A stretch of 8,879 bases of DNA from a virus (taxonomy: Duplodnaviria; Heunggongvirae; Uroviricota; Caudoviricetes). The notes beneath the pieces are model-generated. The model ran no database searches, was not told the origin of the DNA, and saw only the letters and a list, made by a program, of their open reading frames with translations. Below are positions 6,838 through 8,440 of this stretch, piece by piece. Each line of letters begins with the position of its first letter. The first letter of the stretch is position 1. A program made the position numbers and the translations under genes. The DNA lies in IMG/VR virus record IMGVR_UViG_2663763232_000017, positions 1-8,879 of that record; one strand, 5' to 3'.

Positions 6838-7002
6838 ATGAGAGGACTTGCATACAATCCCGGCATTCTTCCGGCAGAAATGATTATTCGCCAACGCGTA
6901 AAGCCAATGCCATCGAGAGAGGAATTGCTTAAGAGAAAGAGTTTCGGTTCTGTTAATGACAACAAATATCTGAATGCGATGTTTCGGAGTGGGAAAAAAT
7001 GA
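6838..7002 (+). CDS. Small hypothetical protein (54 aa)
   Basis: Internal Met of listed ORF 6688..7002, with GAGGA 7 nt upstream. Its stop overlaps the next start (ATGA). Confidence 0.4.
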
Positions 7003-7580
7003 AACAAATGTCACTAATTGAGATGGATGGTTTTCTGAAAGGTAAATGCATCCCACGAGATTTAAAGGTTAACGAAACAAACGCTGAATACCTTGTCCGT
7101 AAGTTCGGTGAACTTGAATCAAAACTGGAAACGGCGTTGCGGGAGTGTCGTTCTGCTGGAATCACGATTGATAACCTTGAGGCCAAGTGCGCGGCGCTGG
7201 CTGTGGAGAATGCGTGGCTGAATAAATTTATCGTACAGAGTTGCTACGTGTTTGACGGCGAGCAGGGTGAACTATCTGATGCGTATATCTGCGCAATAGA
7301 CGGAAGGATGCCGCAAACCCAAGTCACCGACGCTTTTTGGGATGAAGTGAAGACTGAAGCACGCAAGGAAGGCGCTTACTTTGTGGCGAACAGAATGCTG
7401 GCTGCCTGGGAAGCTGGTTTTATTGATGATACTGCGAAGAACGCAGCGGATATTGCCCGGATGATTCTTACCTCAACTGAGTTTATGGCTAATGCACCGG
7501 AAGGAGATTTTGACCGCTCATTCTCTGATGGCGTTCTCGAAGATATCGCCGACCAGCTTCGCAAAGGAGGCAACCAGTGA
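6999..7580 (+). CDS. Hypothetical ea-region protein (193 aa)
   Basis: Listed ORF, translationally coupled to neighbours on both sides. No confident family assignment. Confidence 0.6.
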
Positions 7581-7876
7581 CTGTATGTCTTATTGATAAA
7601 CGTCGACGTGGGCAACAAATACCATCTGTTGAAATGCCGAATCACACATGGTTTTGCGTACTTGATATCGATGGTATGGATGCGTTGGTTGACACTCGTC
7701 ATTACTGCGATACCGCAACAGCTACTCCGGCGAAAGCAAAGAAAATGGCTGCTCTGATAGAAAACTGGACTCCACCTGATGGTTGGTGCAATGGGAATGA
7801 TCGAGATTGGCATGAAAAAATGAAGGGCTATATCTGCGATTTCTTACGTAAATGCAACGGCTTCAGGGTGATGTGA
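7577..7876 (+). CDS. Hypothetical Cys-rich protein (99 aa, 6 Cys)
   Basis: Listed ORF. GTG start overlaps the upstream stop (GTGA). Confidence 0.5.
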   Translation: MTVCLIDKRRRGQQIPSVEMPNHTWFCVLDIDGMDALVDTRHYCDTATATPAKAKKMAALIENWTPPDGWCNGNDRDWHEKMKGYICDFLRKCNGFRVM

Positions 7877-7877
7877 T

Positions 7878-8165
7878 ATGACCAAAATTAACTATCAGGC
7901 GCTGCGCAAAACAGCAGAGAAAGCTCAAGAGCATGGCGTGTTCAACATGGATATACATTCACAAACCGTGCTGGCGCTACTGGATGAACTGGAAGCCGCA
8001 GAGAAGCGAATCGCTGAACTGGAAGCGAAGCTAGATAGCGCAGATAAATTGCAAGATAGCGCATTTCGTCATGGTCTTCAGCATGGCTTCAGTTTAGGTC
8101 AAACGGATAATCAGGCTGGATTTGAAGAGTGCTTATCTGCCTATGGCACCGGTAAAGGAGAGTGA
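7878..8165 (+). CDS. Hypothetical protein (95 aa) with helical/coiled-coil segment; possibly Ead/Ea22-like N-terminal region
   Basis: Listed ORF. Motif INYQALRKTAEKAQEHG and an ELEAAEKRIAELEAKL heptad-like segment. Family assignment is from memory and tentative. Confidence 0.5.
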   Translation: MTKINYQALRKTAEKAQEHGVFNMDIHSQTVLALLDELEAAEKRIAELEAKLDSADKLQDSAFRHGLQHGFSLGQTDNQAGFEECLSAYGTGKGE

Positions 8166-8440
8166 ATGTGAAAAATTATCTCAGCAATTTAGCCAGCATG
8201 CTTCAGGGGATTGCAGGTGTCATTTCAGACGGCGAACGAGTGCAAACTGAGTGTCCTCCGCATTTAAAATCTGCGCTACTTGAGGCGTCTCATGCGCTGG
8301 ATGGTCAATCAGTCAGGGTTAATTACCCACCAAATGGGAAACCGGAAATCGTAAATGCTCGCGGCAAGCATCGGCAGTTAACTTTCCGGGAACGGATTGC
8401 TATTCGCCTTCTCGGCGGCAGAACGGAGATTAGGCCATGA
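8162..8440 (+). CDS. Hypothetical protein (92 aa)
   Basis: Listed ORF. GTG start overlaps the upstream stop; AAGGAG lies just upstream. Confidence 0.5.
   Translation: MNVKNYLSNLASMLQGIAGVISDGERVQTECPPHLKSALLEASHALDGQSVRVNYPPNGKPEIVNARGKHRQLTFRERIAIRLLGGRTEIRP

Follow-up and report, generated by a model that had tools for sequence, protein, structure and literature searches.

The exo-xis/ea regions of lambdoid phages are long-standing "viral dark matter" with an influence on lysogeny and on the induction of prophages, Stx phages among them. What the small genes of such a region are, and what they might do, is the question raised by five ORFs at 6838-8440 of the 8,879-nt stretch of viral DNA analysed here (Caudoviricetes; IMG/VR record IMGVR_UViG_2663763232_000017, positions 1 to 8,879), hereafter the window. 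All five are found on the + strand where a sequence-only reading had placed them, and they are genuine accessory genes (g1 to g5) at the end of the early-left (pL) operon that is distal to its promoter, in a prophage like those of P22, Sf6 and HK620. Together they form an ordinary, catalogued mosaic and no new kind of element. The useful outcomes are a corrected annotation (the g5 start, one non-overlapping junction and a scar downstream) and a negative metal-binding result, along with two modest leads: DUF7739 is predicted to fold like an inhibitor, and the g5 family spans a wide range of hosts.

The placement of the cluster between the recombination module and xis, and its description as the early-accessory ("ea", exo-xis-equivalent) segment of a lambdoid prophage, are both borne out, the prophage being of P22/Sf6/HK620 type. 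The same + strand carries the cI-like gene, N (N peptide, 2350-2712), Kil/CIII, ERF (5522-6127), Abc2 and xis alike. The recombination module, to which ERF belongs, ends with abc2 (anti-RecBCD, 6534..6827; PF11043, E=4.9e-63; phrog_656), and downstream of the cluster lies a TorI/HkaC-type excisionase gene (xis, 8679..8879; phrog_66), named torI or Sf6 gp18 in the best-matching records, with substitutions at the three codon positions numbering 1/1/92. Chance alone would give 3.6 sigma-70-like promoters within 6400-8879, where the search found none, and an Rfam scan of the window returned no RNA family. Transcription of the five genes would begin as soon as the phage infects or is induced, in common with N, kil, cIII, erf and abc2. 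An intrinsic terminator-like hairpin with a T-run (8611..8637, + strand; an 8-bp stem with 5 GC pairs, then TTTATT), whose sequence is conserved with E. coli MSHS 472, sits between the accessory genes and xis and would separate the two.

That the five ORFs are real genes, and not chance ORFs, follows from strong Pfam or PHROG profile matches for all five, from an excess of substitutions at the third codon position in g1 (82/67/226), g3 (48/40/144) and g5 (7/2/45), and from the lack of support for antisense ORFs; the latter, including a 145-aa ORF at 7376-7813 (-), were rejected as genes for want of any PHROG match. Proteins near-identical to cluster members (96-98%) are already in public databases. 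The sequence-only reading had held that none of the five could be assigned, which was too strong in that four have family names (g1 is DUF2737, g3 is DUF7739, and g2 and g4 are Ead/Ea22-like) and the fifth is PHROG 14964, but which holds for biochemical function. Profile searches per protein, proposed there as a check, gave catalogued families throughout and established roles for none; because no family has an established biochemical role, the label "unknown function" stands. Most early-left genes of P22-like phages are without known function according to the phage L genome paper (PMC8022706). None of the papers searched gave a functional mention of DUF2737 or DUF7739, and PDB sequence searches with single proteins, and with profiles of the g2 C-module, g3 and g5, returned no relatives.

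Overlapping stop and start codons had been thought to link all five genes, and this is certain at two of the four junctions. Read from the sequence, g1/g2 is an ATGA overlap (6999-7002) and g2/g3 a GTGA overlap (7577-7580, with AAGGAGG 6 nt upstream), whereas at g3/g4 the stop TGA (7874-7876) and the ATG at 7878 are separated by one base (TGAtATG, 7874-7880), and g4/g5 reads TGAatGTG at 8163-8170 or, less likely, GTGA at 8162-8165. The start of g5 is most likely the GTG at 8168, 2 nt past the g4 stop, rather than 8162, because the match to the PHROG profile begins at residue 3, nearly every homologue has a length of 90 aa, the gene caller on the source contig chose the equivalent start, and AAGGAG (8155-8160) stands 7 nt ahead of this GTG. 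Two overlaps are thus certain, and all four contacts lie within 2 nt. This is the layout of a coupled operon, with contacts of a few nucleotides at most and RBS-like GGAG or AAGGAGG ahead of each start; g1 has GAGG 8 nt before its ATG. Junctions of matching type occur in Sf6 (a 4-nt overlap at gp23/gp22, a 1-nt gap at gp22/gp21 and an overlap at gp21/gp20). At contacts of 2 nt or less ribosomes would pass from gene to gene, giving co-expression of the cluster.

The slot had been described as highly variable, and dozens of arrangements are indeed found among 80 related loci, which were chosen through g3. In no phage and no complete E. coli genome is at least 80% of 6500-8879 present in one piece. 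Upstream of g3, g1 is found in 59 of the 80 loci, 37 of which have a variable insert of ~0.1-1.6 kb between the two; g4 follows g3 in ~14, and g5 in none of these g3-selected loci. One locus (L061) carries the g1-g2-g3(-g4) block behind a different recombination module, Gam-RecT. Among the closest counterparts are Sf6 genes 23-19 and the HK620 hka genes, which share the operon position, strand and flanks of the cluster (abc2 upstream, TorI/HkaC-type xis downstream), with ~95% DNA identity between the Sf6 gene 23 region and g1 and likewise between gene 22 and g3. The window differs from Sf6 in that an Ea22-like gene, g2, lies as an insert between the genes for DUF2737 and DUF7739, the 95-aa mini Ea22-like g4 stands in place of the 226-aa gp21 and g5 in place of the Lar-like gp20, and gene 19 is reduced to its last third. 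Otherwise unrelated proteins share conserved 3' ends, either ...QLRKGGNQ* followed by GTG or ...G(I/V)KGE*. The gene order is a mosaic that most likely arose through recombination at such conserved gene-boundary sequences, and the sequences used for shuffling would be the same short RBS/stop/start junctions that give coupling.

The first gene, g1 (6838..7002), encodes a very basic protein of 54 aa (pI 10.7) that belongs to DUF2737 over its full length (PF10930, E=2.7e-29, 101.2 bits against a cutoff of 25, residues 1-53 on a 53-position profile; phrog_1117, E=1.5e-37) and has homologues in Sf6 gp23, HK620 HkaI and HK97 gp38. Three 153-aa proteins that look like DUF2737+DUF7739 fusions (P0003, P0004, P0007) were discounted as Rosetta-stone evidence because they are single-member clusters and their length fits readthrough of an ATGA junction. 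The second, g2 (6999..7580), is acidic (193 aa, pI 4.5) and is drawn from the Ead/Ea22-like pool (phrog_14548, E=1e-86; phrog_614, E=2e-72), with more than 8000 homologue clusters, some of them named ead/Ea22-like by NCBI. It consists of an N-module with a coiled coil (~residues 1-75), a linker and a conserved helical C-module (~104-193), and the two modules are also found apart, at >90% identity, joined to other partners that bear Ead_Ea22, DUF551, RNase_T, HNH_3 or DUF550. Searches of g2 against Pfam gave nothing beyond noise at E<=0.1, so that it falls outside PF13935 (Ead_Ea22), and BLASTP against lambda Ea22 gave no significant match. By analogy, g2 may be likened to Ea22 because its architecture is that of a coiled-coil protein, because phrog_368 and phrog_14548 match both g2 and g4, and because of the NCBI naming.

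The fourth gene, g4 (7878..8165), encodes a minimal Ead/Ea22-like protein of 95 aa that belongs to PF13935 (E=1.3e-8, 35.9 bits against a cutoff of 27) through its coiled-coil motif, the match covering residues 27-59 and profile positions 65-100 of 139. It is made up of an Ea22-type N-terminal peptide, one TVLALLDELEAAEKRIAELEA coiled-coil motif and a 40-aa tail, and has no globular C-terminal domain. Lambda Ea22 has a short N-terminal peptide, a long coiled coil and a dimeric C-terminal domain (CTD) known from an NMR structure, and forms a tetramer (PMC10834534); the CTD by itself is inactive. With lambda Ea22, g4 shares 37% identity in its N-terminal 45 aa (51 aligned positions, E=7e-6), covering the N-peptide and the start of the coiled coil, and g2 is built to the same general plan, with an N-peptide, a coiled coil and a C-terminal module set apart. 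The lambda gene likewise sits in the early-left accessory (exo-xis) region. Neither protein has the three-part lambda architecture, since the lambda CTD has no counterpart in g4 and is unrelated in sequence to the g2 C-module. The Ea22 proteins of lambda and of Stx phages are pro-lysogenic (PMC7093339; PMC10834534).

The third gene, g3 (7577..7876, GTG start), encodes the 99-aa homologue of Sf6 gp22 and belongs to DUF7739 (PF24881, E=5.5e-21, 75.4 bits against a cutoff of 27, residues 1-93; phrog_1239, E=3e-55). Its AF2 model (mean pLDDT 86, pTM 0.79) has as best structural neighbours DMP12 (3w1o) and a CdiI immunity protein (5j4a_D), with YfbM (1ryl) also similar. Sequence identity of g3 to these three proteins is only 7-11%, a profile search against the PDB gave no link to any of them, and a Foldseek search against BFVD brought up no named function. 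DMP12 is a Neisseria DNA mimic that binds HU (PMC3643605) and has a DNA-like negative surface, whereas g3 is not acidic; its neutral pI (7.6) led to rejection of the idea that it mimics DNA. Immunity proteins of the CdiI type have an adjacent cognate toxin gene; no toxin domain was found beside g3, whose neighbours in the window and in the 80 related loci are Ea22-like genes and DUF2737.

The last gene, g5 (8168..8440), with its probable GTG start, encodes a basic 90-aa protein (pI 10; phrog_14964, E=1.7e-58) that ends in a conserved C-terminal motif, R.LT.RER.A..LGG.TEIRP. Phages of Pseudomonas (Pbunavirus), Xanthomonas (jumbo phages) and Stenotrophomonas carry homologues at 42-47% identity. 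The neighbours of these homologues indicated no shared function, the named ones being a RepB-type primase, a terminase and a SLOG-family protein only, and structural matches of g5 were limited to non-specific helical hairpins. Closer relatives are found in mEp043, mEp213, Dewey and Louie, where the ORF directly downstream of EaD is 93.5% identical to g5; there the next gene is intact and of EaA or Lar-like type, whereas the window has a stub.

Taken as a group, the five genes probably encode pL-driven, non-enzymatic protein-binding modulators in a mosaic operon, a reading in which we place moderate confidence. The products are small, with no recognisable catalytic domain, and would most likely bind other macromolecules. 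By analogy with the Ea22 proteins of lambda and Stx phages, g2 and g4 may form coiled-coil oligomers and would bias the lysis-lysogeny or induction decision via a host partner. The compact alpha/beta fold predicted for g3 resembles small stoichiometric inhibitor or immunity proteins, and judged from this model g3 probably blocks a host or rival-phage protein. Nucleic acid or acidic partners may be the targets of the basic g1 and of the basic g5, whose C-terminus is conserved and rich in Arg.

A second, less probable reading is that at least one gene, most plausibly g3, g1 or g5, encodes a counter-defence or host-takeover inhibitor directed at a host nuclease, nucleoid protein or defence-system sensor. 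Abc2 acts on RecBCD, and Ral/Lar proteins, encoded in the same slot of sister phages, act on type I restriction. The cluster lies directly after abc2, and Lar-like restriction-alleviation genes are held in the slots of sister phages (Sf6 gp20, Louie CDS0022). Conservation of g5 across virulent Pbunavirus, jumbo Xanthomonas phages and temperate coliphages is easier to square with a target that Gammaproteobacteria have in common than with a part in lysogeny. Stoichiometric inhibitors, the HU-binding DMP12 and the CdiI immunity protein (PMC3643605), come out as the top structural matches to g3, but the similarity in fold is modest and g3 is near-neutral, unlike DNA mimics. Moreover, none of the five proteins matched a PADLOC defence model, NCBIfam gave weak matches only, far below cutoffs, and neither the cluster peptides nor their family names appear in the supplements of the accessory-gene screen of Silas et al. 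More specific proposals, which we regard as rather unlikely, are that g3, alone or with the upstream DUF2737 protein, would represent a new stoichiometric-inhibitor family, folded like immunity proteins, against a host nucleoid protein, nuclease or defence sensor and, separately, that g5 would be a widely conserved factor for host takeover that works by way of the invariant Arg-rich motif at its C-terminus.

Immediately downstream of g5, 8437-8570 is a deletion scar in which the stub of an EaA-like gene is joined to the tail of an Sf6 gene-19 homologue. The 14-codon stub (8437..8481, + strand), coupled to g5 by ATGA, begins with 11 codons (MTTNHPAHGPV) that form the 5' end of a hypervariable EaA-like multidomain gene and then runs out of frame into gene-19 sequence; the same start heads intact genes of 100-315 aa in 53 IMG/VR contigs. 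The gene-19 homologue survives as a 3' remnant of its last 33 codons (8468..8570, + strand), recognized by alignment to the intact gene of E. coli MSHS 472, which encodes 99 aa with CxxC...CxxC motifs and is 95% identical to Sf6 gp19. At the junction, ...GGTCCTGTAT|TCGCGC, a TAT microhomology is common to both parents. The ATGA at 8437 is a sixth coupled start, absent from the sequence-only reading, and it opens this stub only.

With such a scar adjacent, this end of the operon is decaying in this prophage, and it could be that g4 is itself a decaying deletion derivative. A broader form of this idea, in which part of the cluster is non-functional debris, namely an internally shortened Ea22-like g4 and perhaps g5 in an eroding ea region, appears very unlikely. 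It draws on the scar and on the size of g4, the shortest Ead/Ea22-like variant seen (95 aa compared with 110-270 aa), which lacks the core of the N-domain as well as the CTD. Alignment of Sf6 gp21 (226 aa) to g4 needs a 53-position gap in g4, and EaD of mEp043, the only protein matched by the g4 tail, is identical to g4 over the C-terminal ~46 residues (KLEAKLDSADK to the end) but is 146 aa long, its N-domain being more complete and a second segment of coiled coil being present. The g5 homologue is also unannotated in the mEp043 RefSeq record. However, all five ORFs are uninterrupted, and g4 has an unbroken frame, a proper RBS and a proper start codon. The first 24 residues of g4 recur identically after g3 in a second phage background (L061, a 4.3-kb contig that ends there). 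For g5, purifying selection is strong (41 synonymous compared with 6 non-synonymous codon changes), and distant homologues exist.

The least probable reading is that g3 is a Cys/His metal-binding (zinc) protein, as its composition had suggested. The count of 6 Cys is right, with 3 His among the 99 residues, and in a family alignment of 20 sequences (PF24881 being present in every full-length homologue aligned) C93 is invariant and H79 nearly so, while H23, C27 and C44 co-occur in an E. coli-like subclade, with H23 and C27 at i/i+4 on a predicted helix. Metal binding is nevertheless unsupported: C93 is the sole invariant Cys where three to four conserved ligands would be expected, the others being replaced in many members (C27 by K/T/E, C44 by N, C71 by V/I/Y, C88 by V/I and C4 by Y/G/S/E/D), even the subclade lacks a conserved set of four ligands, CxxC and HxxxH-type motifs are absent, and AF2 predicts a confident, ordinary alpha/beta domain for the family, with no knuckle or ribbon elements.

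Beyond xis, a search of the 3.7-kb host flank found no tRNA gene. The prophage probably adjoins the dsdCXA genes of E. coli, the place at which argW is located in E. coli K-12.

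The window covers the early-left (pL-direction) operon of a P22-like prophage (Lederbergvirus, Sf6/HK620/CUS-3 type), with every gene on the + strand. A cI-like HTH/S24 repressor gene (1246-1947) precedes those for the N antiterminator (2350-2712, PF25694), Kil and CIII, ERF (5522-6127, PF04404), a 127-aa HK97 gp40-like protein, the anti-RecBCD protein Abc2 (6534-6827, PF11043, E=5e-63) and, past the early accessory (ea) region, a TorI/HkaC-type excisionase (xis, 8679-8879). Two ORFs between N and a 322-aa gene (3003-3326, 107 aa; 3390-3860, 156 aa) belong to no Pfam family. The 322-aa early-left gene (4004-4972), Sf6 gene-33-like and also without a Pfam match, has a repetitive central region extremely rich in Glu, Ala, Lys and Arg (EAEAKAKAEIEAAARREAEAKAAAERAERE...). 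The ea region is the P22-like counterpart of lambda exo-xis; such regions have long been recognised as dispensable and variable, with functions known for few of their genes (PMC8022706, PMC10834534). A search of 6400-8879 for sigma-70-like promoters found none, as would fit transcription reading through from pL, and a terminator-like hairpin lies at 8611-8630. The closest DNA matches to 6500-8879 (phiv205-1, Sf6, Sf101, CUS-3, HK75) reach 95-97% identity, each over at most 55% of its length; neither a phage record nor any of the 5,426 complete E. coli genomes searched carries 80% of the segment in one piece. Contig LLYM01000154.1 (GCA_001484485.1) has the same gene order. Its genes 3' of xis, with Pfam domains of a LysR-type regulator, a GntP-family permease and a PALP enzyme, fit dsdC, dsdX and dsdA, a neighbourhood adjoining argW, the site at which KplE1, CUS-3, HK620 and Sf6 integrate; a tRNA gene search of this flank found none.

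The five ea-region ORFs of the sequence-only reading, g1-g5 (6838-7002, 6999-7580, 7577-7876, 7878-8165 and 8162-8440, all +), are all present. They are genes and not chance reading frames, because all five have strong protein-family matches, homologues of g2 number in thousands, and substitutions among homologues cluster at third codon positions (positions 1/2/3: 82/67/226 for g1, 48/40/144 for g3 and 7/2/45 for g5). Antisense ORFs opposite them have no family support. Overlapping stop and start codons had been claimed for the whole series. As read from the sequence, this holds for g1/g2, which share ATGA at 6999-7002, and for g2/g3, which share GTGA at 7577-7580 with AAGGAGG 6 nt upstream, but not for g3/g4, where a single base separates TGA (7874-7876) from ATG (7878). 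At g4/g5, GTGA at 8162 offers a possible overlap, but a gap is likelier: several features point to GTG 8168, 2 nt past the g4 stop, as the g5 start, since the PHROG profile alignment begins only at residue 3, nearly all homologues have the resulting 90 aa, the gene caller on LLYM01000154.1 begins g5 there, and AAGGAG at 8155-8160 is properly spaced for it. The close packing is real and consistent with translational coupling, and Sf6 has annotated junctions of the same types.

The g1 product (54 aa, pI 10.7) is a full-length DUF2737 protein (PF10930, 101 bits; phrog_1117) homologous to Sf6 gp23, HK620 HkaI and HK97 gp38. The g2 product (193 aa, pI 4.5) has strong phrog_14548 and phrog_614 matches, no Pfam match and more than 8000 homologue clusters, some called 'ead/Ea22-like' by NCBI; BLASTP detected no similarity to lambda Ea22. 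It is modular: in a search among 1.8 billion representatives, its N-module (about 1-75) and C-module (about 104-193) each recur at more than 90% identity with other partners, which carry Ead_Ea22, DUF551, RNase_T, HNH_3 or DUF550 domains. The C-module is, by alignment consensus, a conserved helical domain with no relative among solved structures. The g4 product (95 aa) passes the Ead_Ea22 Pfam threshold via a coiled-coil motif. No other member of its hypermosaic set (110-270 aa) is as short; the set shares M(S/T)KI(N/D)YQALR...AEKA, the motif ANPATVLALLDELEAAEKRIAELEA and often the same last few codons. The g4 product has its first ~45 residues in common with lambda Ea22 (37% identity, E=7e-6), and its last ~46 exactly match the C-terminus of mEp043 EaD (146 aa). 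Sf6 gp21 can be aligned only by opening a 53-position gap in g4.

Among 80 IMG/VR loci selected through g3, 59 have g1 upstream of g3: the two genes adjoin, as in Sf6, in 22, and a variable insert of about 0.1-1.6 kb stands between them in the other 37. The insert is often a gene with the g2 N-module and a different C-module. Genes of g4 type follow g3 in about 14 of the 80 loci, the distance from there to xis is 0.9-3.1 kb, and g5 occurs in none. One 4.3-kb contig (L061) carries g1-g2-g3 behind a Gam-RecT recombination module, with the start of g4 at the contig end. The last few codons common to otherwise unrelated proteins also supply the RBS and stop/start junction for the gene that follows (...QLRKGGNQ* then GTG; ...G(I/V)KGE*; window 7560-7580 and 8150-8165, locus L062 4440-4462), and they match 'boundary sequences' annotated in Sf6. 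In HK620 and HK97-type phages, such boundaries have been described as places where gene cassettes are exchanged by homologous recombination. Those seen here look conserved and could serve both translational coupling and cassette exchange. The window is thus a further reshuffling of cassettes from a known pool.

The spread of the g5 family is unusually wide for a coliphage ea-region gene. The g5 product (8168-8440, 90 aa, pI 10; PHROG 14964, E=2e-58) is 93.5% identical to the ORF that follows EaD in mEp043, mEp213, Dewey and Louie, and homologues of 42-47% identity occur in Pseudomonas Pbunavirus, jumbo Xanthomonas and Stenotrophomonas phages. Such loci include L142 (2501-2767), L144 (2243-2752) and L143 (2477-2752); the virulent Pbunavirus TH15 carries a member, and in jumbo Xanthomonas phages the homologue is the C-terminal half of a 169-aa protein. 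The alignment has a strongly conserved C-terminal motif, NARG..R.LT.RER.A..LGG.TEIRP. The predicted structure (pLDDT 80) is a helical hairpin, three short strands and a C-terminal helix, with non-specific helical structural matches only. The family is under-annotated or inconsistently annotated. The mEp043 RefSeq record (NC_019706; L003 3501-3776) has an intact homologue without a CDS, and in Louie an 80-aa version is annotated from a downstream ATG.

It is fairly probable that g1-g5 encode pL/N-driven, co-translated accessory proteins that bind macromolecules. Transcription would run from pL, with N antitermination, as soon as infection or induction occurs, and the genes would be co-translated. 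Their products, without recognisable catalytic domains, probably act by binding other macromolecules. The g4 product may form Ea22-like coiled-coil oligomers, and that of g2 might do likewise, to judge by architecture; in lambda and Stx phages the tetrameric Ea22 promotes lysogeny or damps down induction by way of an unknown partner (PMC10834534, PMC7093339). A stoichiometric inhibitor may be encoded by g3, and the very basic g1 and g5 products may contact nucleic acid or acidic partners. The main alternative, that one or more of the five are counter-defence or host-takeover inhibitors, is a serious if less probable one; abc2 adjoins, Lar-like genes occupy the same slot in Sf6 and Louie, and g5 is present in virulent phages. 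Each product is 96-98% identical to public database proteins and falls in a catalogued family. The region is no new kind of element, and its sequence-only description was accurate, though ordinary. What value remains is in two leads that can be tested: the inhibitor-like fold of DUF7739, the family of g3, and how widely the under-annotated g5 family is distributed.

Partial decay of the cluster is improbable. A deletion scar at 8437-8570 shows local erosion of this prophage. An ATGA at 8437, coupled to g5, opens only 14 codons, of which the first 11 (MTTNHPAHGPV) come from the beginning of a hypervariable EaA-like gene. This gene is intact in 53 viral contigs (100-315 aa, with DUF550, DUF551 or zinc-ribbon modules) and lies directly 3' of g5 in two of them. 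At ...GGTCCTGTAT, followed by TCGCGC, the sequence switches out of frame, across a TAT microhomology, to what is left of an Sf6 gene-19 homologue, its final 33 codons. That gene encodes a 99-aa protein with CxxC...CxxC motifs; E. coli MSHS 472 has it intact, with 95% identity to Sf6 gp19. The deletion removed what had stood between g5 and the terminator. Right after the gene-19 stop, 8571-8621 holds an in-frame ...DITDIRIEELKEHQAA* tail, which matches the C-terminus of a 55-aa lambda-orf55-like protein of phiv205-1 and Louie and ends in the terminator loop. MSHS 472 carries the same tail behind its intact gene 19, which marks it as older and widespread, either a relic of recombination or a boundary sequence.

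The g3 product (7577-7876, 99 aa; DUF7739, PF24881, 75 bits; phrog_1239) is a homologue of Sf6 gp22. Its richness in Cys and His, from which metal binding had been suggested, is borne out by count (6 Cys, 3 His). In an alignment of 20 members (55-97% identity), C93 is the only invariant Cys and H79 is nearly invariant, while C4 is replaced by Y/G/V/S/E/D, C27 by K/T/E, C44 by N, C71 by V/I/Y and C88 by V/I; there is no CxxC-type motif. The AlphaFold2 model built with this alignment is confident (mean pLDDT 86, pTM 0.79) and is an ordinary alpha/beta domain (beta-hairpin, helix 22-29, helices 51-63 and 76-92, terminal strand). A family-wide metal site is therefore unsupported, and metal binding by g3 is improbable. 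H23, C27 and C44 co-occur within an E. coli-like subclade, which could have a site of its own, but even there no four-ligand set is conserved. DUF2737 and DUF7739 also occur together in three database proteins of 153-154 aa (P0003, P0004, P0007), the length expected if g1 and g3, arranged as in Sf6, were read as one frame across their ATGA junction. Each forms a single-member cluster assembled from read archives, so these are probably products of frameshift or misassembly and not true fusions.
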